Below are positions 4,277 to 58,999 of a DNA stretch of 64,000 nt, in pieces. The position numbers were made by a program, and so were the translations under genes. The notes under the pieces were generated by a model. That model was not told the DNA's origin, made no database searches, and saw nothing but the letters and a program-made list of their open reading frames with translations. How positions within the stretch are numbered: position 1 is the stretch's first letter; every line of letters starts with the position of its first letter. Source of the DNA: Dehalococcoidia bacterium (lineage in GTDB: Bacteria; Chloroflexota; Dehalococcoidia; UBA2979); the NCBI GenBank assembly GCA_028279505.1, contig JANQNP010000067.1, positions 9 through 64,008 on the forward strand, written 5' to 3'.

Positions 4277-5206
4277 ATGCCCGTCCCCACATACAACGAA
4301 CTGATGCGGCCGGTGCTGGCTGCGCTCGATTCCGGAGAGACCCTGCCCGTCTCCCAAATCAAGGAGCGAGTGATCGACTCGCTCCCGGACGAGGCTGCTG
4401 ACACTCGAGCGACAACACCTGGCGGGGCACCGCTGCTAGTCAGGCGAATCGAGTGGAGTGTCCAGTACCTGCTGAAGGCCGCGCTGATCGAACGACCGGA
4501 GCGCGCCCACTACCGGATCACGCCTCGCGGTTCGGATGTCCTCACGAACGGCCCCGCTACCCTCGACTGGCGTTTCTTACAGACATTCCCCGAATTCGCG
4601 GGCTGGCTAAGTCGATCGAACTCGGTCCGACCGGGACGAGCCGGCGATGGAAGCGCCGAACTCGGGGCGCAGTCGGACGGGGACTCGACGCCGGACGATC
4701 TGCTCAGCAGGGGCGTCGCCGCAATCGAGGCGCGCGTGATCGATGAGCTAGTCGAACAACTCACGCAGATCACACCGACCCAGTTCGAGCGCCTAGTCAC
4801 ACGACTCCTCGAGTCGATCGGATACACCGGCACGGAGGGCGTCGGCGAAGTCACGTCCGGCGGAGCCGACGGCGGCATCGACGGGATCATCCGACGCGAC
4901 CGTCTTGGGCTCGAGCGAATCCTCCTCCAAGCGAAACAGTGGTCTGCCGACCGCCCTGTCGGGCGACCTGAGATCGATAAGTTCCTCGGAGTCCTCGGGC
5001 GCGAAGGTGTTTCACTGGGTGTGTTCATCACCACGTCCAGCTTCACCCGCGACGCTCGTGAGGGCGTCACGCACCTGGGTGGTCAGGTAGCGCTAATCGA
5101 TGGGCAGCAACTCTCGCAGCTCATGTACGAATACGACACCGGTGTGAGTATCGAATCCCGCTTCGTGACGAAACGCCTCGATACTGATTTCTTTGAGAAC
5201 CTCTAG
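4277..5206 (+). CDS. mrr: Mrr-type modification-dependent (type IV) restriction endonuclease
   Basis: Mrr_N winged helix (MPVPTYNELMRPVLAAL) plus Mrr_cat core (GGADGGIDGII...LLQAKQW...GVFITTS). Markedly lower GC and GC3 than flanking genes; AT-richer upstream region. Confidence 0.85.
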   Translation: MPVPTYNELMRPVLAALDSGETLPVSQIKERVIDSLPDEAADTRATTPGGAPLLVRRIEWSVQYLLKAALIERPERAHYRITPRGSDVLTNGPATLDWRFLQTFPEFAGWLSRSNSVRPGRAGDGSAELGAQSDGDSTPDDLLSRGVAAIEARVIDELVEQLTQITPTQFERLVTRLLESIGYTGTEGVGEVTSGGADGGIDGIIRRDRLGLERILLQAKQWSADRPVGRPEIDKFLGVLGREGVSLGVFITTSSFTRDAREGVTHLGGQVALIDGQQLSQLMYEYDTGVSIESRFVTKRLDTDFFENL

Positions 5207-5212
5207 CTCAGC

Positions 5213-5692
5213 TCAGCCTTCTGCGCCGTGCGCATCCATCAACGAAAGCGCGAGGACCACCTCGCCGTCCTCGACCTCACCCGTCGGCGTGAACCCCAGC
5301 CGCGCGTAGAACGGGCCGGCGTTCCCCGCCCGCTCCGCGTGCGACAGCACCACGCGGTCGACCCCATCGAGGGCGCGCGCCCGCTCGATCACCAGTCGCA
5401 TCGCCGCCGCGCCGTACCCGCGCCGCTGGTGCCCAGCATCGATCATCATCCGCCAGACGTAGACGCACCGCTCCTCGAGGACGTCGATCCCCTGCACGAA
5501 CCCGACCGGCTCGCCGTCGGCGGTGATCGCGCGGAACCACGCCTGCGGCTCGAAGTGCGCTTCCGCGATCGACCGCGCGTTGTCGGCGACCAGCTCGCGC
5601 TGCTCCGGCGCCACCGTCAGTCCGAGGATCGCCCGCAGGTTCTCCTTCGTAACCTCCCGCAGCTCGACGCGCGCGGCCCCGGAGCGGCTCAG
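5213..5692 (-). CDS. GNAT-family N-acetyltransferase (start codon unresolved)
   Basis: GNAT motif A (HQRRGYGAAAM) about 80 aa into the domain that begins near VELREVTKENL. No ATG/GTG/TTG lies at the expected N-terminus; CTG at 5692-5690 overlaps the upstream stop. Confidence 0.65.
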   Translation of the reverse strand: MSRSGAARVELREVTKENLRAILGLTVAPEQRELVADNARSIAEAHFEPQAWFRAITADGEPVGFVQGIDVLEERCVYVWRMMIDAGHQRRGYGAAAMRLVIERARALDGVDRVVLSHAERAGNAGPFYARLGFTPTGEVEDGEVVLALSLMDAHGAEG

Positions 5693-6801
5693 CTGAGGAC
5701 CGCCGTTCGCTTCCGCTCGATCAGGTCGAAGTCGATCTGCGCGCCGAGCCCGGGCTCGTTGAACGCGTACACGAAACCCTGCTCGTCGGGATCGATGTCC
5801 TCGACCAGCCCGTACTTCTGGGCGCCCGAGGGCAGCAGCACCTCGAAGTACTCGCAGTTCTTGATCGCCATGATCACGTGCAGGTTCGCCACGTTGTTCA
5901 GCGAGTTGCCGCCGTGGTGGACCTCGTAGTTCATGTGGAACGCCTCGGCCAGGTGCGCCGTCTTCAGGCAGGCCGTGATCCCACCCTTCACCGCCACATC
6001 GCCGCGCAGGTAATCCGTCGCCTGCGCCATCAGCCACGGCGCGTAGGCGGTGAACCCGCCCGGCGAGTACTCCGTCGCCATCAGCGGGATGCCGAGCTGC
6101 TGACGCAGCTTCACGTAGTTGCCGATGTCGTCATCGGCGAGAGGGTCTTCGTACCAGTAGAAGTTCAGCTCCTCGGCGACCTTCCCCACCCGCAGCGCGT
6201 CCGGATAGTCGTACGCCCAGGTCGAGTCGAGCATGATCCGGTAGTCGTCCCCGACCGCCTCCCGCACCGCCCGGCAGACCGCGATGTCGCCCTCGGCGCT
6301 CACCGTCGGCGGGTGGATCTTGTACGCGGCCCAGCCGTCCGCCTGGTACTGCGCCGCCTGCTCCGCGTACTCCTCGGGGGTCTCGAGGGCAGGCGAGCTG
6401 GCATACGCCGGCACCCGGTCCCGGTACGACCCGATCAGCCGGTGGATCGGCAGCCCCGCGATCTTCCCGCCGAGGTCCCACAACGCCACGTCGATGGCGC
6501 CGATCGCTCGAGGCGTCGTCATCCGGTAGCGGCTCGCCAGGTCCTGGTAGATCCGCTCGCGGTCCAGCGGATCCTGGTCGACGACCACCGGCTTCAGGTG
6601 GCGCGTGATCGAAAGCGCGTCCAGCTCCGCGCTGCGACTCGCATTCCCGAGGAACGCGTGCCCCTCGAACGCCTCGTCCGTCGCGATCGTGACGAGGCCG
6701 AGCTGACTGCTGCCCTCGAACGTCGGCGCGAGCTTCCCGTACTTCGTCGCCGGAATGTCGTCCCAGGCGAACAGCGTGACCGTCAGATCCGTGATCTTCA
6801 T
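5689..6801 (-). CDS. Enolase-superfamily enzyme (mandelate racemase / muconate lactonizing enzyme family)
   Basis: MKITDLTVTLFAW..., KIHPP, and metal-ligand-region motifs typical of MR/MLE-family dehydratases or epimerases. Confidence 0.85.
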   Translation of the reverse strand: MKITDLTVTLFAWDDIPATKYGKLAPTFEGSSQLGLVTIATDEAFEGHAFLGNASRSAELDALSITRHLKPVVVDQDPLDRERIYQDLASRYRMTTPRAIGAIDVALWDLGGKIAGLPIHRLIGSYRDRVPAYASSPALETPEEYAEQAAQYQADGWAAYKIHPPTVSAEGDIAVCRAVREAVGDDYRIMLDSTWAYDYPDALRVGKVAEELNFYWYEDPLADDDIGNYVKLRQQLGIPLMATEYSPGGFTAYAPWLMAQATDYLRGDVAVKGGITACLKTAHLAEAFHMNYEVHHGGNSLNNVANLHVIMAIKNCEYFEVLLPSGAQKYGLVEDIDPDEQGFVYAFNEPGLGAQIDFDLIERKRTAVLS

Positions 6802-7926: not shown

Positions 7927-9450
7927 TTAGGCAGCCCCGTCGCCGGAGACGCCGGCCTCGGCTCGGTCTTTGGCCTCGGCGGGAGCCGGCTGCTCCGTGG
8001 GCCGTCCGGCCGGTCGGCCACCCGGCGGCCCCATCTGCGGTCGCGGCGTCGGCGGCCGCAGCGACGATGCGATCGCCCCCAGGAGTGACAGGCCGGCCGC
8101 CACCCGGAACGCGACGCGAATGCCATCGAGGAGCGCATCGGGCGGCAGGTCACGCGCGTTCTCGACCGTATCGATCCCCGCCGAGTTTGCCGCCACGTAG
8201 ACCAGCACCGCCCCCGAGATCGCCAGCCCGACCGAGGAGCCGACGTTCCGCCCCGTGGCAAGACTCGCCGCCGCCGTTCCCAGCATCTGCCGCGGCACGC
8301 TCCCCATCACGTCGCTGCTGTTCGGCGACATGAAGATCGCGGCCCCGATCCCGCCGATCGCGAGCCGCGCCATGATCCACGGCGCGGTGGTCTCGGCGTC
8401 GATCGTCGAGAGCGACAGCAACCCGATCGCGACGATCAAGATGCCGATCGTCGTCTGATGCCGGAACTGATAGCGGTCCGAGATCTGCCCGCTGTACGCC
8501 GAGAACATCAGCATCATCGCCGGCACCGTCGCCAGGATCAGACCCGTCTGCACCGTCGAGTACTCGCGCACCTCGATCAGGTAGAACGGCATCAGGAAGA
8601 TGCTCGCCGACTGCCCAAGGAAGCTCAGGATCAGCGCACCCACCGAGATGCTGAACGTCCGCTGAGCGAACAGGCTCAGCGCCAGCACCGGGCTCTGGCT
8701 CCGCGTCTCGATGTTGATGAACGCGATCAGCGACACGACGCTGACCCCGGCCAGCCCGAGGATCGGCGGCGATGCCCAGCCCCACGCCTGACCGCGGTTG
8801 ACCGCGAGCAACGCCGCCGCCAGGAAGACGAACAAGGTGATCGCGCCCGGGATGTCCAGCTTCCCCGCCGGTCGATCTGACTCCGGGTCCCGGATCAACC
8901 ACACCGCCAGCGCGAACGCGACTAGCACGATCGGGATCCGCAGCCAGAACAGCGCCCGCCAGTCGCCGACCCCCAGCAGCACGCCACCGACGATCGGCCC
9001 GGTCATCAGCCCGGCCCCCACCACCGACCCGACGATCCCGAGGGCGCGTCCACGCTCCTCGTCCGGGAACGCCTCGGTGATGATCGCGTTGCCCGTGCCC
9101 AGCGCCCCCGCCAGCCCGATCGCCTGCACCGCGCGGAACGCGATCAGCATCTCGATGTTCTGCGCGACGCTCGCCAGCACCAGCCCGACGCCGAACACCA
9201 GCCACCCAACGAGGTAGATCCGCTTCCGGCCGAACAGGTCACCAGAGCGTCCCGCGGTCAGCGTCAGCCCGGTCGACACCAGTGAGGCGGTCAGCGACGC
9301 CCACACCACCACATCCGGCGGCCGGTCGAACTCATCGGACAGCGTTGGGAGGGCGACGTTGATGATGGAGAAGTCCATCGTCGCCATGAAGGTGCCGAAC
9401 GTGACGGCCAGCAGCGCGCGCCACTTGTACGGCAGGTTGGTGAGCGGCAT
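7927..9450 (-). CDS. MFS transporter (DHA2-like, 14 TMS)
   Basis: LAVTFGTFMATMDFSIINVALPT, GRSGDLFGRKR (motif A), multiple TM helices, Pro/Gly-rich cytoplasmic tail. Confidence 0.9.
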   Translation of the reverse strand: MPLTNLPYKWRALLAVTFGTFMATMDFSIINVALPTLSDEFDRPPDVVVWASLTASLVSTGLTLTAGRSGDLFGRKRIYLVGWLVFGVGLVLASVAQNIEMLIAFRAVQAIGLAGALGTGNAIITEAFPDEERGRALGIVGSVVGAGLMTGPIVGGVLLGVGDWRALFWLRIPIVLVAFALAVWLIRDPESDRPAGKLDIPGAITLFVFLAAALLAVNRGQAWGWASPPILGLAGVSVVSLIAFINIETRSQSPVLALSLFAQRTFSISVGALILSFLGQSASIFLMPFYLIEVREYSTVQTGLILATVPAMMLMFSAYSGQISDRYQFRHQTTIGILIVAIGLLSLSTIDAETTAPWIMARLAIGGIGAAIFMSPNSSDVMGSVPRQMLGTAAASLATGRNVGSSVGLAISGAVLVYVAANSAGIDTVENARDLPPDALLDGIRVAFRVAAGLSLLGAIASSLRPPTPRPQMGPPGGRPAGRPTEQPAPAEAKDRAEAGVSGDGAA

Positions 9451-9512
9451 CGAGCGACTCTACCGCGCACGTGAGCTTCGGTCTGTCCTGGCCTGGCGCC
9501 GGCGTCGGCGTT

Positions 9513-9543
9513 GAGATCGTATAGCGACTTAGTTATACATCTC
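9513..9543. promoter_or_regulatory. Inverted repeat GAGATCGTATA-N10-TATACATCTC ending 3 nt before the ArsR-2 ATG; candidate operator
   Basis: Seen in sequence; the arms are imperfect (one c inserted). Confidence 0.4.
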
Positions 9544-9545
9544 GC

Positions 9546-9851
9546 ATGAACGTTTTCGCGGCGCTCGCCGATCCAACTCGCGCCGAGATCGTGGACCGGC
9601 TCGCCGGTGGGCCGCTGACAGCCACCGAGGTCGTCGACCAGTTCGAGATCTCGCAACCGGCAATCTCGCGGCACCTGCGCGTCCTGCGAGAGGCCGGCCT
9701 CGTCACGGTCCAGCCGGCCGGACGCCAGCGCATCTACCACCTCGACCCGGCGCCGCTGCGCGACATCGACGGCTGGCTCGACCGCTACCGCCGCTTCTGG
9801 AGCGGACGCCTCGACGCCCTCGAGGACTTCATGGATCAGGAACCAGCATGA
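9546..9851 (+). CDS. ArsR/SmtB-family transcriptional regulator, cassette 2
   Basis: FAALADPTRAEIVDRL...VVDQFEISQPAISRHLRVLREAGLV; stop overlaps the next start (ATGA). Confidence 0.85.
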   Translation: MNVFAALADPTRAEIVDRLAGGPLTATEVVDQFEISQPAISRHLRVLREAGLVTVQPAGRQRIYHLDPAPLRDIDGWLDRYRRFWSGRLDALEDFMDQEPA

Positions 9852-10372
9852 CGACCTTCCCGAATCTCGACCCCGCGGTCCTCGGCGAGATCAGCCGCGG
9901 CTACAACATCCACTACGAGCGCCGCTCCAAGCACCCGCCCGCCCGCGTCTGGCGCGCGATCACCACGCCCGAGGAAATCGAACGCTGGGTCACGTTCCCG
10001 GCCCGCGTCGACCTTCGCATCGGCGGCGACTACTTCATCGACTTCCAGGGCAACTCGCCCGACAACATCGACGGCGTGATCGTCAGACTCGAGGCCGAGC
10101 GACGCCTCGCCTTCGTCTGGGGCCTCTCCGTCCTCGAGTGGACGATCGAACCCGCCGAGGGCGGCGGGAGCCGTTACACCTTCATCCACCACGGCATGCC
10201 CGTGCGCGGTCGCCCGGACGAGGAAGGCGTCGCCGCCGGGTGGCACACCTCCCTCGACCGCTTCGACCTGCTGCTGGAGGACGAACCGATCCCGACGTTC
10301 GACGACGCCGGGTGGCGCACGTTGTCAGCCGAGTACCGCGCCCGCATCGAGGCAGCGATCGGCGCCGTCTAG
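9848..10372 (+). CDS. SRPBCC / Aha1-domain protein, cassette 2
   Basis: PARVWRAITTPEEIERWV..., AAGWHTSLDRF; paralogue of 45..671 and 20331..20834. Confidence 0.8.
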   Translation: MTTFPNLDPAVLGEISRGYNIHYERRSKHPPARVWRAITTPEEIERWVTFPARVDLRIGGDYFIDFQGNSPDNIDGVIVRLEAERRLAFVWGLSVLEWTIEPAEGGGSRYTFIHHGMPVRGRPDEEGVAAGWHTSLDRFDLLLEDEPIPTFDDAGWRTLSAEYRARIEAAIGAV

Positions 10373-10450
10373 CCGCGTACCGGCCGCGCTCGCCCAACGC
10401 CTACAATCAGCGCCCACCTTCCGAGGGCTGCGCGGATTCGAGGCGAACCG

Positions 10451-10996
10451 ATGGCGACACAGGCACAGGTCCAAGAGTTGATCGCAAAGATGTCCGAGGA
10501 GCGCGCCGCCCTGCTCGAGGCCGTCGCGAACGTCGAGGAAGCCGAGGCCGACGTCCGGCCGCCCGAGGGCGAGGGCGAAGCCGGCTGGTCCGTGAAGGAG
10601 CAGCTCTCCCACCTCGCCGAGATGGAGACCTCCTACCGCGCCTGGGTGGAGCGCGCCCTCGTCGAGGACCGGCCCGACGTCACCGAGGGCACCACCTCCG
10701 ACCCCGTCGCCGTGCCGCACGACGAGGCCCACTCCGCCGACCTCGCCACCCACCTCGCCGAACTCGCGAAGCAGCGCGAACGAACGCTCGAGGTGATCGC
10801 CACCATCCCCCTCGACGGCTACGAGCGCACCGCCTCCACCCGCATCTTCGGCGAGCTGACCGTGCTTCAATGGCTGCGGTCCTACTACCGGCACGACCGC
10901 ATGCATGCCGCGCAGATCCAGGGCCGCCAGTCCGACTACGTCCCGCGCTGGGCCGAGGGTCAGGGCGAACCGCAACGCGCCACCAAGATCGACTGA
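10451..10996 (+). CDS. DinB/YfiT-like four-helix-bundle family protein (DinB_2)
   Basis: WSVKEQLSHLAEMETSY...LQWLRSYYRHDRMHAAQI resembles the DinB_2 metal-binding His pattern. Confidence 0.55.
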   Translation: MATQAQVQELIAKMSEERAALLEAVANVEEAEADVRPPEGEGEAGWSVKEQLSHLAEMETSYRAWVERALVEDRPDVTEGTTSDPVAVPHDEAHSADLATHLAELAKQRERTLEVIATIPLDGYERTASTRIFGELTVLQWLRSYYRHDRMHAAQIQGRQSDYVPRWAEGQGEPQRATKID

Positions 10997-11016
10997 TCGA
11001 GCGAGTCGAGGACACG

Positions 11017-11337
11017 ATGCTCAAGACCACCGCCGACACATTCCCCGACCGCGAAATCGAAGAGACGATCGGCCTTGTGATCGCCAACGCGGTCCGCGCC
11101 CGCAACATCGGCCGCGACATCACCGCCGGCCTGCGGAACCTCGTCGGCGGCGAGATCGGCGCCTACCAGCAGCTCCTCGTCGAATCGCGGGCGGAGGCGC
11201 TCAGCCGCCTTGAGGAACAGGCAGCCGAACAAGGCGCCGACGCGATCGTCGCCCTCCGCGTCTCCACCGCCAGCGTCATGTCCGGGGCTGCCGAGGTGCT
11301 CGTCTACGGCACCGCCGTCAAGCTGCGGGCGCAGTAA
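11017..11337 (+). CDS. YbjQ-family (UPF0145) protein
   Basis: MLKTTADTFPDREIEETIGLV...GADAIVALRV is typical of YbjQ/DUF74. Confidence 0.8.
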   Translation: MLKTTADTFPDREIEETIGLVIANAVRARNIGRDITAGLRNLVGGEIGAYQQLLVESRAEALSRLEEQAAEQGADAIVALRVSTASVMSGAAEVLVYGTAVKLRAQ

Positions 11338-51374: not shown

Positions 51375-51989
51375 TCACGGCGTTGGCATCTCCTCAATCA
51401 CCACGTCGACCCAGACGGAGGTACCACCCTCGGGGTTCGGAGACTCGATGCGGGTCGGCAGACCATCCGTCCAGTGCTCCGTGACGACCGAGCCATCCGG
51501 GTTGGTGGTGGTCACACGTGAGTCGCCGCCACCCAGGCGTAGCTCCTCAACGGAGCTGCCATCATCGAAGTCGACTCTCATGCTCGTCAGCTCCCCGGAG
51601 GCGTCGTAGTCAGAGGTCATCCTCGAGCCCTGGAACACGTCGGTCGTCGTGCGGCTCCCATCCTCGTGAGTGTCGGTCGTCGACGCGCTCGCGCCGGAAC
51701 GCTCGAGTGGAGCCTGCATCCACTCGTCCGTGACCTCGCCGTTGGCGTCCCGCACGGTCACCGTCCGCAGCCCATCCTCGTCAAGGACTGACTCGACGGT
51801 CGAGCCATCGGCGTTCGTCGCCGTCGCGCGGCTCGGCCCGCGCTGATTCGCGATCCTCGAGGGCCCGCCACCACTCGCGGCCGCCGGTCCCGGGTCGAGC
51901 GTCGCGCCCGAGCCAGCTCCACCCGGAGCCCCACCGCCGGCCGCCGGCTGCGGAGTCTGAGGTGCGTTCGCTACGTTGCCTCGTTCCAT
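51375..51989 (-). CDS. Hypothetical protein with YD-repeat-like segments
   Basis: TNADGSTVESV..., RDANGEVTDEW, SDYDASGELTSMRVDFDDGSSVEEL and TNPDGSVVTEHW resemble Rhs/YD repeats; Gly/Pro-rich N-terminus; no signal peptide seen. Confidence 0.45.
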   Translation of the reverse strand: MERGNVANAPQTPQPAAGGGAPGGAGSGATLDPGPAAASGGGPSRIANQRGPSRATATNADGSTVESVLDEDGLRTVTVRDANGEVTDEWMQAPLERSGASASTTDTHEDGSRTTTDVFQGSRMTSDYDASGELTSMRVDFDDGSSVEELRLGGGDSRVTTTNPDGSVVTEHWTDGLPTRIESPNPEGGTSVWVDVVIEEMPTP

Positions 51990-52032
51990 CGATTCCTCCA
52001 CGGTCCGGCGCCGATCAGCGCCATCACTTCCG

Positions 52033-54102
52033 TCAGTCCTGCTGAGGGTTCCGCTCGCACAGGTTCTCGATCGCCCGATTCGATGTGCCGAGGCTCCGAA
52101 GATCCTCGAGTACATACGAACACCACTCGCCGATCACCCGGGACGCAAAGCGCGCTTCCGGGAACTCTGGATCGATCACCGAGGTCTCCGGGTCGACGAC
52201 CCGGCGGTTAGTCGTGAATTCGACCGTGGGACCGAACCCGCAGCCACCCGGGTCGGGATCCGCGACCGCGATCCAGGGACGTTCGAACGAACGCACCACC
52301 GTCAGCGGCAGCCGGACGTGCGCGGCGTAGGCCCCGGCCCCGCACGAGTAGCGACCGCTGTCCGGCGAGTCCACCAGGTCGAACGCGTAGCGGTAGAAGT
52401 GTTCGCCATCGATGATCACCGTCTCTAAACGGACACCCCGCCCGCCCTCGGCGGTCCCGAACGGCGTCGCGAGGCCCGGCGCCTCCGTCGCCGCGAGCGA
52501 AGCATCACCGCCGGGCGCGGCGACGCTGTCGCCTGTGTCCGAGCCACCTCCGAGGACCAACACCGCGACGAGCACGACGCCGATCGCACCGATCCCCAGA
52601 CCGATCACGAGTGGCAGATTCCAGTTCTCCCAGAACGGCCCGGACCCTGGCAGCGCAACCTCGCTGCCGCTCCCCTTGTCGCCCGACGTCGCGCCCAGAG
52701 GTTCGGCAACCGCTGGACCCGGCGGCGCCGACGTGCCAGCGCCGCCTGATGCCGGTCGCGCCGGCGGTGCCGCCGTCGTTGCGGTGGCCCCACGCCGGGC
52801 CTCGGTCGTTGCCCGCAACGCGCCCGAGGACAGCGCCGCCAGCCGAGCCACCCCATCTCGACCGCGCTCCGGCGGCGCGAGCGCGGCGCCGGGCGCCACC
52901 TCGTCGAAGAGCCCACCGTCGACGGCATCGTGGTAGCTGCGAAGCACCCTCCGCGGCGACGCCGCGCGCAGATAGCCCTCAACCAACCGATCCAACCGCC
53001 CCGTAGCCAGGTCTGAGCGAACCTCGGCGAGCCGGTCGCGCGGCACAGCGAAGTAAGCGCGTCGCGCGCCGTCGACCTCGTAGAGCACGTAGTCCCACGT
53101 AACGCGAAACGGACGGACCGCAAACCCCGGTCGAACGATCGAACCCAGCGCCTCGCCCATCGGATGAGTGCGAGGCTCGGATGCACAATCCCTCGAGGGC
53201 GCTCGCGAGACCTGCGACTCGAGCGGTAGCGCCTCCATGCCCGCGACGAAATCGTCGACGAGCTCGAGCTCGGTATCGGTCAGCGCGGAAGACAACCGCT
53301 CGCGGGCTGCGTCCCAGCTCCGCTCCAGCAGGCGCTGACCGCTGATCGCCGGCGCCAACCGCCGTCGCAACGAGGCGTCACGCCCCTCCGCGTACAGGTC
53401 GACGCCGAACGCGCTTCGATCGATGTACCAGCCGAACCGATCAACCGCCGGCGCGACATCAGCCTCAACCGCCGGCGGCAGCGATCGGCGGCTTCGAAGC
53501 CCGGTCGCCACATCGAGGCAGAGCAGCGCGCCGCCGGTCGCGACCGCGAGCGCCGCCGCCAGCGGACGCCCCTTGCAGTAGTCCCCGCCGAGCTCCAGTC
53601 GCCCCCACCGAGGCCGCACAAGCAACCCCGGCGAATCGCTCCGCTCCATCAGCAGCATCAACGCCGGCGCGAACGTCCGCGCAAACAACCCGGCCACTTC
53701 CACCACGTGCTCATCGGGAATCGCGACCGAGAGGTGCGTCGACACACCCTCGATGGCGAACTCGTCCTCCAGGAGGTCGGTCAGCGTGCGATCGCCCGCG
53801 GCGATCCAGCGCAGCGCCTCATCGGTGAACCCGGGCTCGAGCGCGATCGGAGGAGTCGCGAACTCCGCCTCCGACCCATCGCACGTCAGCGCGAGCCCAC
53901 TCGGCAGCCGCACAGCATGCCGGTCGCCCGGATCGAGCCGGGCGCGCGGAACCTCGAGGGCGGGCAACAGTCGACGGAAGTCGACAGGCGCGCCGTCCAG
54001 GGCGCGAACGATGAACTCGTGCTCGATCCCGACAACGGTGCCGGAATCGACCGGAACAGCGAGCCGAGGCTCGGCGACGCCACCCCTACTGATCGTGACC
54101 AC
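52033..54102 (-). CDS. Large fusion protein: cytoplasmic carboxylate-amine-ligase-like (GCS2/YbdK-like?) N-terminal region, one TM helix, and a C-terminal Cys-containing extracytoplasmic domain
   Basis: N-terminal VGIEHEFIV...THLSVAI loosely resembles the GCS2 GxExE / HxH motifs (low confidence). TM helix LPLVIGLGIGAIGVVLVAVLVLG. C-terminal DPDPGGCGFGPTV motif is shared with the lipoprotein 12598..14001. Confidence 0.55.
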   Translation of the reverse strand: MVTISRGGVAEPRLAVPVDSGTVVGIEHEFIVRALDGAPVDFRRLLPALEVPRARLDPGDRHAVRLPSGLALTCDGSEAEFATPPIALEPGFTDEALRWIAAGDRTLTDLLEDEFAIEGVSTHLSVAIPDEHVVEVAGLFARTFAPALMLLMERSDSPGLLVRPRWGRLELGGDYCKGRPLAAALAVATGGALLCLDVATGLRSRRSLPPAVEADVAPAVDRFGWYIDRSAFGVDLYAEGRDASLRRRLAPAISGQRLLERSWDAARERLSSALTDTELELVDDFVAGMEALPLESQVSRAPSRDCASEPRTHPMGEALGSIVRPGFAVRPFRVTWDYVLYEVDGARRAYFAVPRDRLAEVRSDLATGRLDRLVEGYLRAASPRRVLRSYHDAVDGGLFDEVAPGAALAPPERGRDGVARLAALSSGALRATTEARRGATATTAAPPARPASGGAGTSAPPGPAVAEPLGATSGDKGSGSEVALPGSGPFWENWNLPLVIGLGIGAIGVVLVAVLVLGGGSDTGDSVAAPGGDASLAATEAPGLATPFGTAEGGRGVRLETVIIDGEHFYRYAFDLVDSPDSGRYSCGAGAYAAHVRLPLTVVRSFERPWIAVADPDPGGCGFGPTVEFTTNRRVVDPETSVIDPEFPEARFASRVIGEWCSYVLEDLRSLGTSNRAIENLCERNPQQD

Positions 54103-54287
54103 GCCTCGTCGCCCCTCGTCACCAATTCGCCCCGACCGACCGGACTGTACTAGAGAACCATGCAGCCTCGGCTACTCCCGGGGCGCCGGGGAGTATCACC
54201 CATCGCACCCGCCTCCGCCCGACAGCTCACATCGAAGCGCCCATCGCTTCGAGGAACCGTCGAAACGGAAGAGGCTGCAACCGGCTT

Positions 54288-55295
54288 CTAGGCCGGCGTC
54301 GCTTCGGGCGTCGGCTCGACGGTCGGTTCGGGAGTCGGGTCCGGTGTCGGGGTGGGTTCCGGAGTCGCCGAGGCACCCGGTCCGGGCGTCGGCTCCGGCG
54401 TTGCCTCAGGAGCCGGCTCCGGCGTGCTCGTCGGTTCGGGCGTCGCCGCCGGCTCGGGCGTCGCAGTGGACTGGGGCGTGCCCGTCGGCTCAGGCGTCGC
54501 AGCTGGCTCCGGAGTGCCCGCAGGCTCGGGCGTCGCCGCCGGCTCGGGCGTGGCTGTGGGCTCCGGCGTCGCCGACGGCTCCGAGCCCGAATCGTCTGAC
54601 GTCCCGACGGTCTGATCCGCGATCTCAACCTCGTTCGACGGCTCAGACTCCATCCCCGACGCATCGATCCCGACCACCCGGTAGTAGAACGTCACCCCGT
54701 CCTCGATCGGCGAGTCGACGAACTCACTCCCCAGCGGCGCCCCAACGATCTCGTACGGCCCGCCCGAACTCCGCGAACGGAGCACGACGTACCCCACGCT
54801 CACATCGTCATCCGGCCAATCCAACGTCGCGTACCGAATCGAGTGATGCTCCGACCCAGTCAGATGCCCACCGAGGAAGTACGTGAACTTCGGCCGGCAA
54901 TGCACGCGGGGCGACTCCGCCGGCTCCCCTGGCGCCCCGCCAACCACCGCACTCACCCGGTACTGATGCCGGAGGAAGCTCGGCTTCAGCGCCAGCTCCG
55001 TCGTCCCCCCACCCACCGAGGCAAGATCGCGATACCCCGAGGAAAACGGCCCTTTGTGCTCAATCTCGTACCCCTCGGCACCCTCGACCGCCCCCCACTC
55101 CAGCTGCGCGATCGGGTGGCGGTACCAGTCGATGTCACAGTCGACGTCCGCCGGGGTCCCCGACGGCACGTCGATGTCCGCCGGGATCACGAGGGCGTCG
55201 AGCTGGCTATCGCCAACAGAGATCGTCGCCGCGTTTGCGGTGATCGTCGTGATCGCCACGACCAGCAGTCCCAGAACGACGACGCGCCTGATCAC
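54288..55295 (-). CDS. Secreted FN3-like-domain protein with a C-terminal (T/A)PEPx Pro/Thr-rich repeat tail
   Basis: Signal peptide VVLGLLVVAITTITANAAT; FN3-like EWGAVEGAEGYEIEHKG and FYYRVVGIDASGMESEPSNEV; about 20 TPEPA-type repeats. Confidence 0.65.
   Translation of the reverse strand: MIRRVVVLGLLVVAITTITANAATISVGDSQLDALVIPADIDVPSGTPADVDCDIDWYRHPIAQLEWGAVEGAEGYEIEHKGPFSSGYRDLASVGGGTTELALKPSFLRHQYRVSAVVGGAPGEPAESPRVHCRPKFTYFLGGHLTGSEHHSIRYATLDWPDDDVSVGYVVLRSRSSGGPYEIVGAPLGSEFVDSPIEDGVTFYYRVVGIDASGMESEPSNEVEIADQTVGTSDDSGSEPSATPEPTATPEPAATPEPAGTPEPAATPEPTGTPQSTATPEPAATPEPTSTPEPAPEATPEPTPGPGASATPEPTPTPDPTPEPTVEPTPEATPA
54291..54600. repeat. 15 nt periodic tandem DNA repeats (ggctcSggcgtcgcY-like) encoding the TPEPA linker
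   Basis: Seen in sequence, within the CDS 54288..55295. Confidence 0.6.
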
Positions 55296-56920
55296 TCGCG
55301 GTCGCCCGCCAGCTCAGTGAGATTGGAGAAGGGTGAGCCGGCTGGCTGACCATCTCCTTGGCCGGTCACGTACTCGTACGAATCCTCGCCTTCACGAACG
55401 AAGTAGCGCGTCCCACGCAGCCCTTGCTCCATGAAGATGATGCCGCCGTCGCGCCGTGCGAGACGCGCCAGGTCGGACATCGTGGCAAGCACCGTCACCT
55501 TCGAGGCCGTCCCGGCCTGTCCTGGCTGAACACGCAGCAGCATCGAGTGATAGCGCGCCTGGATCCTGCCGTCCTCGTCGCGCCCGACGCCGAGCAGCCA
55601 GACGGCGAGCGCTCCCCCGAGCACGACTGCCCCGAGAACGAACCCGGCGACGGCAACCTGCCGCCAGCGGGCGACCGTCAGCTCGAGGCCCAACGGCGCG
55701 TAGGTGTTCGACACCTGGATCGTCTCACCGAGGCTGGTCGGTTCGCTCTGCGAGAGCAGCGTCGCTGGCCGGATCTCAGTGTCGCTGTACTCCACCGACA
55801 GCACCGGACTGAACTGCTCGCTGATCTGATTCGGGCCGAGCGCCCCTTGTAGGTCGACGGTCGGCACGACCTGCAGCTCATAGCGGGCAGGCGTGAAGCC
55901 GGTCTCCGCCTCCAGCGCCTCGACCAGGGCCGCAATCTCAGAGAACCGGAACCGCAGTTCGCCGCTGGTCTCCGCACCCTCGAACGGCATCGGGTCGATC
56001 GTGATCGGCGTCTGCGTCCACCCGTCCCCCGCACGAACCTGCAGTTCGAACCCTAGCTCGCCGCCCACGACCGGAGGCAGCGACGAGCTCAACGCGTAGT
56101 TGAAGCGAACCACCATCTCGCGCGCCAGGTTCGTGTAGACCGGCTGATCGAGGACCGCGGTTCCCTCCTCGTCGGTCTCGGACGGCGCGATGATCCCACC
56201 CGGATACAACCGCGAAGGCTCCATCACGAGGTAGTAGTCGAACCCGCCCTGATGCTCGTACGCGAGCTGCTCATCGAACGCCGAGTGCGACGAGTCCTCC
56301 CGGAACGCCCCGAACCCGATCGCCGCGAACAGCAGGATCGCCCCGGCACCCAGGGCGAGAGGCAGGAACAACGCCGCGGGAAGCGGCGGCATCGATCCGA
56401 GCCCGCTCGCCGACTCATGTCGCTCGCCGCCATGCTCGCTCGTCATCACCGTCCTCCTTCGCGCACGACCACTCGAGGTCCGCCAGTTGATCCCGCCGAT
56501 CGCGAACAGACCGGCCGCCGCGATCCCGAAGTGAACCGGCTCGCCAAGCCGGAGCAGCTGACTCGCCCCACCGGGCACGGCGAACCACTGCCGCCCGAGA
56601 ATCTCGTCGGGCGTCGGTCTCCAGTCATCAATCTCGTTCCGGTTGTCACCCTGAGGAACGAACCCCTCGGCCGCGTTGCCACCAACAATCCGGTGGATTA
56701 CCACACCGCCCTCCGGCACCCGGAAGGCGATCACATCTCCGACCTCGTAGTCCGAAGCACGCCGAACGACCACCAGGTCGCCGGTGTATAGCGTCGGCTC
56801 CATGCTGATGCCCGAGACGAAGATGTAGTCTGCCGGACCGTTCAGCATGAACCCCGGCCGGAGCAGCACGAACCAGCTAGCGAGCAGCAAGACCGGGATC
56901 AGCGTGGCTAGCTTGCGCAC
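55292..56920 (-). CDS. SipW-type (archaeal/ER-type S26) signal peptidase I fused to a C-terminal domain of about 350 aa containing TM helices
   Basis: VSGISMEPTLYTGDLVVV (Ser box) and VIHRIVG (His box) match SipW-type peptidases. Additional TM segments (ALFLPLALGAGAILLFAAIGFGAF; VAVAGFVLGAVVLGGALAVWLLGV). Its stop overlaps the next gene's start (ATGA). Confidence 0.75.
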   Translation of the reverse strand: MRKLATLIPVLLLASWFVLLRPGFMLNGPADYIFVSGISMEPTLYTGDLVVVRRASDYEVGDVIAFRVPEGGVVIHRIVGGNAAEGFVPQGDNRNEIDDWRPTPDEILGRQWFAVPGGASQLLRLGEPVHFGIAAAGLFAIGGINWRTSSGRARRRTVMTSEHGGERHESASGLGSMPPLPAALFLPLALGAGAILLFAAIGFGAFREDSSHSAFDEQLAYEHQGGFDYYLVMEPSRLYPGGIIAPSETDEEGTAVLDQPVYTNLAREMVVRFNYALSSSLPPVVGGELGFELQVRAGDGWTQTPITIDPMPFEGAETSGELRFRFSEIAALVEALEAETGFTPARYELQVVPTVDLQGALGPNQISEQFSPVLSVEYSDTEIRPATLLSQSEPTSLGETIQVSNTYAPLGLELTVARWRQVAVAGFVLGAVVLGGALAVWLLGVGRDEDGRIQARYHSMLLRVQPGQAGTASKVTVLATMSDLARLARRDGGIIFMEQGLRGTRYFVREGEDSYEYVTGQGDGQPAGSPFSNLTELAGDRE

Positions 56921-56961
56921 GATCTGATCCCGGTCATCTGCTCATCCACCAGGTCCCGGCG

Positions 56962-57402
56962 TCACAGATCCACGCAGGTACCGGGGCTGGCGTTCTGGAA
57001 GCAAACCGTCAAACGAATGGAATCGATCTCTTCAAGCAGGATCCCCTGCCCGAAGAAGTTGAAGTCCGCCGTCGACGGCGCCCCGTTCGGTGCCATCACC
57101 CGATGCAACGTCGACCCGAGGGGTGCGCCGCTTCCATCTCGAAGCGTGAGAAACGCATCCACCTCGACGAGTCCTGGAGGCCCATCCTTCGCCAGTGTGA
57201 CGAAGACTCGGTGCAGCTCCAACGGCGAACTCGCGTCCGCCTGCCAGGTCACGTCTGTGACCTTGACCGGCGGCGCATCAACGACGCCGGAGCCACCCGC
57301 CCCAGAGCTCCCACCCACGCTCCCGCCGGTCGCGTGCGCGACCGTAAGAGCGAGGGCGAAGACCCCGAAGACGACCGGCAAGAGCCGAGTGAGTCTCCTC
57401 AT
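56962..57402 (-). CDS. Small secreted protein (possible SipW/SPase substrate)
   Basis: Signal peptide MRRLTRLLPVVFGVFALALTVAHATGG followed by a Gly/Ser-rich stretch. Confidence 0.5.
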   Translation of the reverse strand: MRRLTRLLPVVFGVFALALTVAHATGGSVGGSSGAGGSGVVDAPPVKVTDVTWQADASSPLELHRVFVTLAKDGPPGLVEVDAFLTLRDGSGAPLGSTLHRVMAPNGAPSTADFNFFGQGILLEEIDSIRLTVCFQNASPGTCVDL

Positions 57403-57454
57403 CGGCCCTCCCTCACAACGATCTCGCTAGAGGAGCTCTAGTGAGCACGCGGAC

Positions 57455-57835
57455 CTAGTTGACCGCGACCACATTGAGCGCCGTGACGGTCTCGGGATCG
57501 ATGCCAGCCGCCGCGGAGCAGGTCACCGCGCCTGCCGTGTTGGTGCAGTTGGGGCTACCCCAGTTGCCGAAGCTGTCGGAACCACCGATCCCGAGGGTTC
57601 CATCCGTCGACACGTCCACGTCTGCGTCCGTGTCATCGATGTCGAAGTCAACACCCGTGATCTCGCCTGAAGTCAGCGTCCAGACGACGTTGGTCACGTC
57701 ATAGCCGCTCACGGTGCCACTCCCCGCGCCGACGCTGCCAGCATCGGGGTCGCTGAACGTAATCGCAGCTGCCGCACCAACGGTCATGGCGGCGAACAAG
57801 CCGACCACCGGAATCAAGAGAAGCTTCTTAATCAT
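57455..57835 (-). CDS. Small secreted protein with SipW-cognate-class signal peptide (TasA/camelysin-like fibre subunit candidate)
   Basis: MIKKLLLIPVVGLFAAMTVGAAAAITFSDPDAGSVGAG matches the 'A-x-F-S/N-D' SipW-cognate signal-peptide pattern of TasA/CalY; RBS GAGGAG about 12 nt upstream. Confidence 0.65.
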   Translation of the reverse strand: MIKKLLLIPVVGLFAAMTVGAAAAITFSDPDAGSVGAGSGTVSGYDVTNVVWTLTSGEITGVDFDIDDTDADVDVSTDGTLGIGGSDSFGNWGSPNCTNTAGAVTCSAAAGIDPETVTALNVVAVN

Positions 57836-58453
57836 TCCGATTCGTTCTCCTCGCATCTCCACCATCCATGGCGGAGTTGATTGTTCTCGTGTTCGCCCGC
57901 GCACCACGCGCGGACCGGGACGGTCCTCGTCGTCCCGGAAACTCGAGGTCCCTTCGCCCACACCTCCGTCCGAGGTGCGAGGGGTTGCGAGGCGCGTTAA
58001 ACGAAGAACGCGGGCTCGGACCCGTAAGAGGTCGCGAACCCGCGTACAATCTGAGATTGCACTGGGTGCGGGCTCACGCACCCTCGCACAGGCCCCGGCG
58101 TGGTTGCCGCCACGTCGGGGCCGTCTGCATTGCTCGCCAGATCGTCTACCCCGGCCAACTGCGTGTCATCGTCGGGCCGCGCCCCGTCGAAACCACGCCG
58201 CTACTCGCCGGGAGGGACTCCCTCCGACTCGCATCCATGCCGGTTGATTGAGGTCCCCCGCCAAGAGGACCGGCCCCCGGGTCCTTCCGAGGAGCCGTCG
58301 ACCCACTCGCTCGCGCGAAGTGGATCGGACCGCACTCTACAACAGTTTCGGTGCGCCGGGAGTGAGATTATGTCGAATGGATCGTCAGCTTTTGCACAAG
58401 CTCTACCCACCCGACGCACATTCCCCGCGTCGCGGCTGTGACAGAGCCGTGAT

Positions 58454-58999
58454 CTAGCCCGCGTCCCCTCCGAGGGCGCGACGGGTCGCCAGCGCCCGGT
58501 ACGCGAACAGCGCCTTCAGCGGCAGCGTCGAGAACAGCGCGCGCGTCAGAATCCCGCGCCAGCCGGCCGGGTGCTGATACCAGATCTGGTCGAGGACCTC
58601 GGTGTGCCCATCGTCGAGCGCGCGATAGCTGTGCCGGTGGATCCAGCGCGCCATCGGCCCCAGCTCCTGCGTGTCCGTGAACCCCTTCAGCGCCTTGAAT
58701 CCGCTGTGCACTGCGCGCCAGCGGATCGGGATCGGCCCCACCCACATCGTGAACTCGCTGACCGAACCCTCGCCCAGCGGGTCCATCCGGTGTACCTGCA
58801 TCACCGTCGGCGGCGGGGTCAGCTTCGTCAGCGCCTTCGGATCGGCGTGGAAGCGAGCCACCGCCTCCAGCGACGCCGGTACGACGAACCGCGACACGAA
58901 CGACGGCTCGCCCAGGCTCCGCCGGCGCTTCAGCGCCGTCGCCGCCATGGCGCCCGCCGCCGCCACCGCACCCGTGATCGCGATCCCTCGCACGCCCAT
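58454..58999 (-). CDS. SRPBCC-superfamily protein (polyketide cyclase/dehydrase-like)
   Basis: Size and pattern (PASLEAVARFHADPKALTKL...W..L) fit the Polyketide_cyc2 fold. The family assignment is tentative. Confidence 0.55.
   Translation of the reverse strand: MGVRGIAITGAVAAAGAMAATALKRRRSLGEPSFVSRFVVPASLEAVARFHADPKALTKLTPPPTVMQVHRMDPLGEGSVSEFTMWVGPIPIRWRAVHSGFKALKGFTDTQELGPMARWIHRHSYRALDDGHTEVLDQIWYQHPAGWRGILTRALFSTLPLKALFAYRALATRRALGGDAG

Follow-up and report, generated by a model that had tools for sequence, protein, structure and literature searches.

A candidate surface-fibre operon with a fused signal peptidase I-DUF5305 protein and a conserved leader in a Dehalococcoidia bacterium

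The genes described here occupy positions 51,375 to 58,453 of a 64,000-nucleotide (nt) stretch of contig JANQNP010000067.1 (GenBank assembly GCA_028279505.1), which comes from a Dehalococcoidia bacterium of the phylum Chloroflexota; this whole stretch, of about 69% GC, is referred to as the window. Six genes, g1 to g6, follow one another on the minus strand behind a non-coding leader (Table 1). The main subject of this study is the group composed of g1-g4 and the leader, in which a signal peptidase I (SPase I) fused to a DUF5305 module (g3) is encoded together with two small secreted proteins (g1 and g2) and one larger secreted protein (g4), and which we propose to be one operon for secretion and possible fibre assembly.

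A sequence-only reading of this DNA had listed six open reading frames (ORFs) on the minus strand, and all of them were found where it had placed them, each with a G+C content at third codon positions (GC3) in the coding range (0.77-0.83). The same genes were called independently on a public contig that overlaps this one, except that g6 appears there as a protein of 204 amino acids (aa) with a MERGN start at 51989. The GC3 excess was seen neither in the 126-nt extension of g6 nor in a 246-nt in-frame extension upstream of g1. The gaps are 52 nt between g1 and g2 and 41 nt between g2 and g3, and g3 and g4 share four bases; this overlap had been described as ATGA coupling, but it is GTGA, since g4 begins with GTG. 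A GAGGAG ribosome-binding site lies ahead of the ATG of g1, and the non-coding leader that had been estimated at roughly 600 bp was confirmed. Three elements, a K/R region at the N-terminus, a hydrophobic stretch and an A-x-A site, are seen in each of the proteins of g1, g2 and g4. When the six proteins were compared with Pfam and NCBIfam, meaningful matches were obtained for g3 only.

Table 1. Positions of the features of the locus, and of counterparts in related loci (L numbers), that are discussed in the text.
Feature	Position	Strand	Description
g1	57455-57835	minus	126 aa, secreted, candidate fibre subunit
g2	56962-57402	minus	146 aa, secreted paralogue of g1
g3	55292-56920	minus	542 aa, SPase I fused to DUF5305 accessory module
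S26 catalytic domain of g3 (residues 23-116)	56573-56854	minus	Pfam/NCBIfam match and motif conservation
DUF5305 match of g3 (residues 320-517)	55370-55963	minus	PF17231 profile positions 23-217 of 217
g4	54288-55295	minus	335 aa, secreted, Pro/Thr-rich tail, candidate fibre-end subunit
g5	52033-54102	minus	689 aa, neighbour, probably separate module
g6	51375-52115 as ORF (246 aa); 51375-51989 in 204-aa form	minus	neighbour, probable g5 partner
Non-coding leader	57836-58453	minus	618 nt, no coding GC3 in any frame
Leader core	57902-58129	minus	candidate cis-regulatory RNA of several hairpins; conservation and covariance model
Hairpin P1	58091-58122	minus	GGCCCCG-A-CGTGG [CGGCAA] CCACG-C-CGGGGCC
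Terminator-like stem-loop and U-rich tract	57998-58024	minus	consensus scan match 58024..58011, tail CGTTCTTCGT
ACGGAGGTG island	57961-57969	minus	3' arm of CCUC/GAGG hairpin; GGAGGTG conservation
Leader element, L102	5838-6060
Leader element, L003	8652-8850
Leader element, L026	7193-7234
Leader element, L028	2080-2121
Leader element, L105	334-374
CBM96-bearing secreted genes (~220 aa) upstream of short peptidases	L032 262-969, L034 7315-7998 and similar		motif AASL.V....L

The catalytic domain of g3 matches TIGR02228, the model of archaeal-type SPase I, with 59.5 bits against a curated cut-off of 51.85. Since NF046067, the equivalog model of Bacillus SipW, gives 27.6 bits where the cut-off is 190, g3 is not an orthologue of SipW. 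The S26 motifs SMEP, HR and GDN..D are present, and in an alignment of 24 fusion homologues M40, P42, H76, R77, G91, D92, N93 and D98 are invariant and S39 is nearly so; Ser39, His76 and Asp92/98 are the catalytic residues among them. Judged from these motifs, the enzyme is of the Ser/His type, in which the His of the HR box stands in place of Lys. An S26 peptidase of SipW type (that is, Ser/His and endoplasmic reticulum/archaeal-type), with its motifs kept in orthologues, had been predicted, and both points were confirmed.

The extra fused domain with transmembrane (TM) helices that had also been noticed in g3 is probably a DUF5305 module. PF17231 (DUF5305) matches over nearly its full profile length with E 5.2e-6 and 26.5 bits, just under the gathering score. 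Homologues of the entire fusion numbered 31, and most of them carry a precomputed PF17231 match. Hydropathy analysis of g3 gives TM segments at residues 1-26, 178-207 and 420-447 and a weaker one at ~129-146, which makes three or four TM helices, and an Arg-rich loop directly follows the catalytic domain. As in the DUF5305-type architecture, the segments 178-207 and 420-447 flank the matched region and are followed by a C-terminal tail of 95 residues. From this arrangement, the catalytic domain and the DUF5305 β domain would be located outside the membrane and the C-terminal domain of ~95 residues inside.

By profiles for both halves, peptidase and DUF5305 are fused in 24 ORFs, and they are encoded by separate neighbouring genes in L057 (Tepidiformales; 4805-6315, adjacent) and L044 (7950-10702). 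By sequence comparison, these split genes document gene fusion or fission within the peptidase-DUF5305 family. In L020, one ORF of 1114 aa (7932-11276) consists of a peptidase-DUF5305 fusion and ~570 extra residues. The peptidase fusion had been regarded as undescribed, but proteins of this SPase I-DUF5305 type have already been mentioned for Tepidiforma, Actinoplanes and Anaerolinea (PMC11821415; bioRxiv 10.64898/2026.01.04.697558), and DUF5305 has been described as an SPase I accessory which is at times fused to the peptidase (bioRxiv 10.64898/2026.01.04.697558).

The two small proteins encoded upstream of g3 belong to a family that is hardly visible in current annotation. The signal peptide of g1 has an A-A-A site and that of g2 ends with AHA. 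Full-length relatives of g1 numbered 41 among 1.84 billion representative proteins, and their consensus is YAFAAxNTV....AGxGxGxISGYxVTNVxYTL...VxFDLD...C...C...LxVxA. A subfamily profile made from seven members without g1 or g2 retrieved g1 with E 6e-12 and g2 with E 1.2e-5 (leave-one-out), and g2 shares 37% identity with its counterpart, the second of the small proteins in L102, the closest syntenic locus. With its signal peptide and its match to the g1-subfamily profile, g2 is indeed the second small secreted protein that had been proposed. In profile searches, the g1/g2 family was composed of secreted proteins of ~120-150 residues with at least 635 members, none of which has a Pfam domain; likewise, no significant Pfam or NCBIfam match was obtained for g1, g2 or the 36 family members tested.

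On the basis of its signal peptide, g1 had been assigned to the SipW-cognate class and labelled TasA-like. Hidden Markov models (HMMs) of SipW-cognate signal peptides (TIGR04088 and relatives) matched none of g1, g2 and g4 at E<=1, nor any of 36 family members at E<=0.1. The likeness recognized by eye concerns the residues ITFSD in the cleavage region of g1, which recur in the subfamily as AFTA, AFTD and AFTN and are not confirmed by HMM. No match of g1 or g2 was found to HMMs of Peptidase_M73/TasA, DUF1102 or related families, and for the 36 family members the TasA- and camelysin-type HMMs gave only single sub-threshold matches, to Peptidase_M73 (E 0.036) and TapA (E 0.09), in one member each.

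Two features define the TasA superfamily, namely a core of jelly-roll fold and polymerisation by donor strands (10.64898/2026.01.04.697558). P0034 belongs to the kind of family member that accompanies fused peptidases. Its AlphaFold model is a seven-strand β-sandwich with a mean predicted local distance difference test score (pLDDT) of 74.6, which rises to 86-93 in most of the core, and it has no structural match to TasA, AbpA, TafE or CanA. Because this sandwich lacks a structural match to members of the superfamily, membership of g1 and g2 is not supported by the modelling, and the label TasA-like was given up. In profile searches against solved structures, the small family gave nanobody and immunoglobulin noise, and its best sequence match was 'Geopilin domain 2 protein' (9egp_B), which with E 0.034 is not significant; the g1 subfamily gave no match. 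That g1 and g2 nevertheless belong to the superfamily, as highly diverged proteins built on a jelly roll, seems improbable to us. Such membership would agree with the association of a SipW-type peptidase with DUF5305, which matches TasA, Tafi and AbpX loci, with the resemblance by eye of AFTA, AFTD and ITFSD in the cleavage region to AFND and YFSD of TasA and CalY, and with the two sub-threshold matches above.

The larger secreted protein, g4, is connected with the small family through its N-terminus. The sequence ANA/ATISVGDSQLDALVIPADIDVP at this end matches the N-terminal profile of the family and also an 85-aa protein of L102. Residues 154-222 of g4 match the Fn3-like protein 3mpc_A weakly (phmmer E 0.0014) and no Pfam match was found at E<=1; the earlier description of g4 as FN3-like can be retained to the extent of the former result and received nothing from the latter. 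The last 110 residues contain 33 Pro and 24 Thr, and between the N-terminal motif and this Pro/Thr-rich tail g4 is a candidate for carrying one or two β domains. The counterpart of g4 in L102 (8695-8952), which overlaps the stop of the peptidase gene, is the 85-aa protein and represents a minimal version of g4, consisting of a signal peptide, ASAALIDVDAGAVEAVTIPAEVP (the motif of ~23 residues) and an Asp/Glu tail of ~40 residues. In Actinomycetota loci, an N-terminus of the same type (AASL.V....L after cleavage) is joined to CBM96 modules (E 6e-24). Since the same post-cleavage motif is carried on these CBM96 proteins, it looks, as far as sequence comparison goes, like a portable N-terminal tag. 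The first 16 residues of the mature protein are among the most conserved in the family alignment, and the mature N-terminal segment of P0034 was modelled with low confidence (pLDDT ~54, versus 86-93 for most of the core). The donor strand of AbpX is likewise unstructured in monomer predictions (bioRxiv 10.64898/2026.01.04.697558).

The distribution of the operon was examined by a homologue scan with one genome per species, and 298 relatives were found. The full-length fusion is present in metagenome-assembled genomes of Chloroflexota (Dehalococcoidia, Anaerolineales, Chloroflexia and Caldilineales), Acidimicrobiia, Thermoleophilia and other Actinomycetota, and a short peptidase without the fusion is present in many Actinomycetota. 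Iterative profile searches of neighbouring ORFs showed that the peptidase gene is preceded by a small-family gene in 75 of the 83 peptidase loci, and in 18 of the 20 loci that have a fused peptidase and enough flanking DNA. Two to five tandem paralogous subunit genes of ~100 residues occur per locus, and a secreted gene with the shared N-terminal motif lies downstream of the peptidase in 9 of 19 loci. The view that a dedicated SipW-type peptidase is encoded together with small secreted proteins, which are its likely substrates, is supported. In L043 (7596-12755), the whole module of small protein, fused peptidase and downstream secreted protein is duplicated in tandem.

Gene order in L102 is the same as in the window, namely leader, g1-like gene, g2-like gene, peptidase and N-motif protein, and the operon proteins of the two loci are 37-42% identical. 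A 181-aa gene upstream of the leader (58454-58999, minus strand, in the window; 3046-3597 in L102) is conserved and syntenic, and a ribosomal protein S14 gene lies near both operons. Since the 181-aa gene and the S14 gene are found in both, the window and L102 appear to come from related genomes despite the low identity of the operon proteins.

The leader upstream of g1 is the most novel element of the locus. Its RNA minimum free energy has z = -7.1 relative to shuffled sequences, and that of coding controls ranges from +0.2 to -2.6. Over ~225 nt, the cores of the window and of L102 are ~90% identical in nucleotides and are separated by single-base indels, against only 37-42% identity, as given above, of the proteins encoded next to them. 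A covariance model of a 205-nt core (R1), made from the window and L003 without L102, matched L102 at 118.9 bits (E 3e-29) and L003 in full length. Hairpin P1 occurs with compensatory changes in L003, L026, L028, L102 and L105 and invariably precedes the first small-protein gene; L105 is the sixth and more divergent instance of the leader. In four sequences, the P1 pairing was kept in 78.8% of cells versus 64.9% in shuffles (reached by 0 of 500), with five pairs changed on both sides, and slid controls paired at 27-44%. The apical loop of P1 is CNGC(A/C)A. After P1, each leader has a hairpin with a U-rich tract. This terminator-like stem is weaker in the window than in L026, L028 and L105, where it is strong and lies at the same relative place, and the CCUC/GGAGGUG hairpin comes after it. 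GGAGGTG is invariant in the window, L003, L026, L028 and L102, and the CCUC-GAGG pairs are invariant in three sequences.

A search of 9 kb with Rfam gave no match at E<=1, and for 365 nt the best values were E 0.5 and 1.1, far under the gathering scores. The models R1 and R2 gave no further convincing instances in the 83 peptidase loci, and none was found in L106 either; because of this absence, the element is considered to be clade-restricted. Other possibilities were rejected. A coding function, which corresponds to the in-frame extension of g1 called as protein in L102, was dismissed by the lack of a GC3 signal and by the single-base indels between the window and L102. The pattern CCTCGCAACCC N{4,16} ACGGAGGTG gave 14 matches in metagenomes, which is about chance by a rough estimate, with 0 near peptidase genes, and was dropped. 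The short motif GGCNGCAACC by itself is not enriched (20 found versus ~28 expected), and specificity lies only in the extended hairpin.

Pilus and matrix operons with riboswitch or attenuator leaders are known, for example those with riboswitches for cyclic di-GMP (c-di-GMP). Like these, the present leader is a long structured 5' region with a terminator-like stem and is more conserved than the genes that follow; unlike leaders of the c-di-GMP type, it has no Rfam match, and only six instances are available. From its conserved structure, it is a candidate for an attenuator-type regulatory RNA.

Three groups of known systems can be compared with g1-g4. In the Tat-fimbriae (Tat, twin-arginine translocation), TafD processes the major subunit TafA and TafG (DUF5305) is a proposed helper, and in the Sec-dependent relatives found in Thermococcales and Archaeoglobales the peptidase and DUF5305 are accompanied by a larger tip protein and by small subunits, two or three in number (PMC11821415; PMC12337348). 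The window operon resembles haloarchaeal taf loci in having a dedicated Ser/His SPase I with extra membrane spans and a DUF5305 partner; it also shares with taf loci the pattern of two or three small secreted paralogous subunits with one larger secreted 'tip' protein, and the conserved mature N-termini, which are proposed as donor strands. It differs in that peptidase and DUF5305 are one polypeptide in g3 and, from haloarchaeal loci, in that the substrates have Sec-type rather than Tat signals. The subunits of the window are of ~100 residues, and no resemblance to TafA/TafE or DUF1102 could be detected in their sequence or fold. There is neither a TafB-like regulator nor a TafF-like membrane anchor, and the organism is a bacterium of high GC content.

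The AbpX loci that occur in archaea, Bacillota and Chloroflexota likewise contain major and minor subunits, a tip protein, an SPase I and a DUF5305 accessory, and the study describing them notes an SPase I-DUF5305 fusion in Anaerolinea thermophila (bioRxiv 10.64898/2026.01.04.697558). The AbpX-associated peptidase is described with ten TM helices, whereas g3 has three or four, and AbpX is a jelly roll of 163 residues, whereas no similarity was found between g1/g2 and the TasA superfamily. The tapA-sipW-tasA operon of B. subtilis is similar in that a signal peptidase of endoplasmic reticulum/archaeal type is encoded with secreted substrates, which form fibres in Bacillus, and with an accessory protein that shares the N-terminal motif. 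In contrast to this operon, no Peptidase_M73/TasA domain is present, and the modelled subunit fold is unlike that of TasA. SipW carries no DUF5305 module and, as stated above, is not orthologous to g3.

From these comparisons, we think it somewhat probable, on balance, that g1-g4 and the leader form one operon for secretion by a dedicated signal peptidase and for fibre assembly, that this operon is controlled by the leader, and that g5 and g6 are unrelated to it. By analogy, it would be the bacterial (Chloroflexota/Actinomycetota) counterpart of the archaeal Tat-fimbriae, the AbpX fibril and the Bacillus TasA loci. The proteins of g1, g2 and g4 would be exported by Sec with ordinary tripartite signal peptides, as read from their sequences. 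The g3 protein would be a membrane-embedded Ser/His SPase I with a DUF5305 module composed of an extracellular β domain, a TM helix and a cytoplasmic domain, and synteny together with TafD genetics in Haloarcula suggests that it cleaves the co-encoded substrates. Cleavage would bare the conserved N-terminal segment of ~15-20 residues, which may then enter the β-sandwich of the next subunit as a donor strand, so that g1 and g2 would build a thin surface fibre. The g4 protein, which keeps the N-terminal segment and does not have the family β-sandwich, may cap one end of the fibre, with FN3-like domains presented on its Pro/Thr-rich stalk. The conserved multi-hairpin RNA with its terminator-like stem would govern transcription through the 618-nt leader; its conservation is an observation and its function a presumption. 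A fibre is the leading idea because the parts list of the operon equals that of Tat-fimbriae and AbpX loci and because the substrates share a post-cleavage segment on unrelated C-terminal parts. By analogy with the known systems, donor-strand exchange in g1/g2, with g4-type proteins as strand-only end caps, is plausible.

The conserved segment might also be only a determinant of recognition or cleavage and not a donor strand, in which case the dedicated peptidase would serve the secretion of monomers, such as binding proteins associated with the surface or wall. We assign a minority chance to this explanation. The motif is joined to carbohydrate-binding (CBM96) and FN3-like domains of the kind usual in surface proteins that do not polymerise, none of the known donor-strand pilins was found to be structurally similar, and the monomer model of P0034 is a complete-looking sandwich. 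Nevertheless, the tandem arrangement of two to five paralogous subunit genes per locus is the pattern of pilus and fibre loci, the conserved segment reaches 15-20 residues past the cleavage site, which is more than a peptidase site needs, and the g4 homologue of L102, being little more than the motif and an acidic tail, is hard to see as a stand-alone binding protein.

Several points weigh against the fibre operon and have to be kept in mind. The g1 subfamily is weakly linked to the main Cys-containing family (hhalign probability 60%, E 8.5e-5, 115 co-linear columns), and the monomer model of g1 is poor (pLDDT 54.7), with an alignment dominated by the other subfamily, and was left out of the fold search. 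No cell-wall anchor, sortase signal or TM anchor was found in g1, g2 or g4. The DUF5305 match of g3, at 26.5 bits, falls short of the Pfam gathering score of 29, and the lack of a genetic test of the role of DUF5305 is named as a limitation in PMC11821415. The leader element could also act as a DNA operator instead of an RNA. A more far-reaching proposal is that the g1/g2 family, with its Ig-like subunits of ~100 residues and hundreds of members in Actinomycetota and Chloroflexota, is a new class of donor-strand-exchange fibres outside the TasA superfamily, which is matured by the fused SPase I-DUF5305, capped by proteins that have only the donor motif, and switched in this lineage by an undescribed leader RNA, either riboswitch-like or a protein-dependent attenuator. 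We offer this proposal only tentatively.

The two remaining genes, g5 and g6, had been included with g1-g4 in one expanded system of six genes. They are on the same strand, the gaps are 185 nt between g4 and g5 and 43 nt between g5 and g6, and no terminator-like site lies between, which speaks for one system. Against it, tblastn detected no homologue of either gene in the 83 related peptidase loci, and L102 has the operon without g5 and g6. Four contexts of g5 homologues (L084-L087) contain neither a peptidase nor a small-family gene, and g5 homologues pair instead with small MERGN-type proteins. Such an expanded system is therefore very improbable and largely refuted, and by these comparisons g5 and g6 are probably a separate adjacent module of two genes outside the operon. 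Of the supposed co-conservation, the part that concerns g1-g4 holds, as these recur in Chloroflexota and Actinomycetota, and the part that concerns g5 and g6 does not.

By sequence, g5 is part of a protein family that has not been characterised and counts at least 124 members. The part common to the 124 homologues is the N-terminal ~57% (~400 residues), which has the motifs GxEHE, STH and RPRxGRxE and is predicted to be cytoplasmic; in the family, this domain is followed by one TM helix and then by variable ectodomains (TIG, HYR, VHL-β and others). The motifs show some resemblance to a fold like that of carboxylate-amine ligase or glutamine synthetase, for which sequence searches gave no support. 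Neither g5 nor a profile of 48 g5 sequences has a sequence relative in Pfam, NCBIfam or the PDB, and the profile matched only low-complexity linkers among solved structures; the earlier term ligase-like was therefore not retained. The term YD-repeat-like for g6 was also abandoned, since its RHS_repeat match (E 0.63, 11 bits versus a cut-off of 22) is not significant.

Next to g5 homologues, as in L084-L087, there is usually a small protein rich in Gly and acidic residues. This neighbour has a MERGN start in L086 and L087, as the 204-aa form of g6 does, and the neighbour in L084 weakly shares the DGS-type repeat of g6 (E 4.7e-4). From this arrangement, g6 is a probable partner of g5. A direct match of g6 to these small proteins was rejected, because it consists of the common MERGN start and one weak repeat match only.

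What is new at this locus is the unannotated subunit family and the unusually conserved leader, while the peptidase-DUF5305 fusion was already known. Until now, the fibres characterised as being built by strand donation and processed by a signal peptidase of their own have come from Bacillus and archaea. The present results suggest that abundant, mostly uncultured lineages of soil and sediment (Gaiellales, Acidimicrobiia, Dehalococcoidia and Anaerolineae) carry an unannotated version, whose subunits differ in fold and are far smaller. The natural fusion of peptidase and DUF5305 provides a handle on what DUF5305 does for the peptidase. The leader, which is far better conserved than the genes that follow, is a testable candidate for a new cis-regulatory RNA of surface-structure expression. 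If the proteins polymerise, they would represent a new class of subunits for the biology of biofilms and adhesion in Chloroflexota and Actinomycetota.

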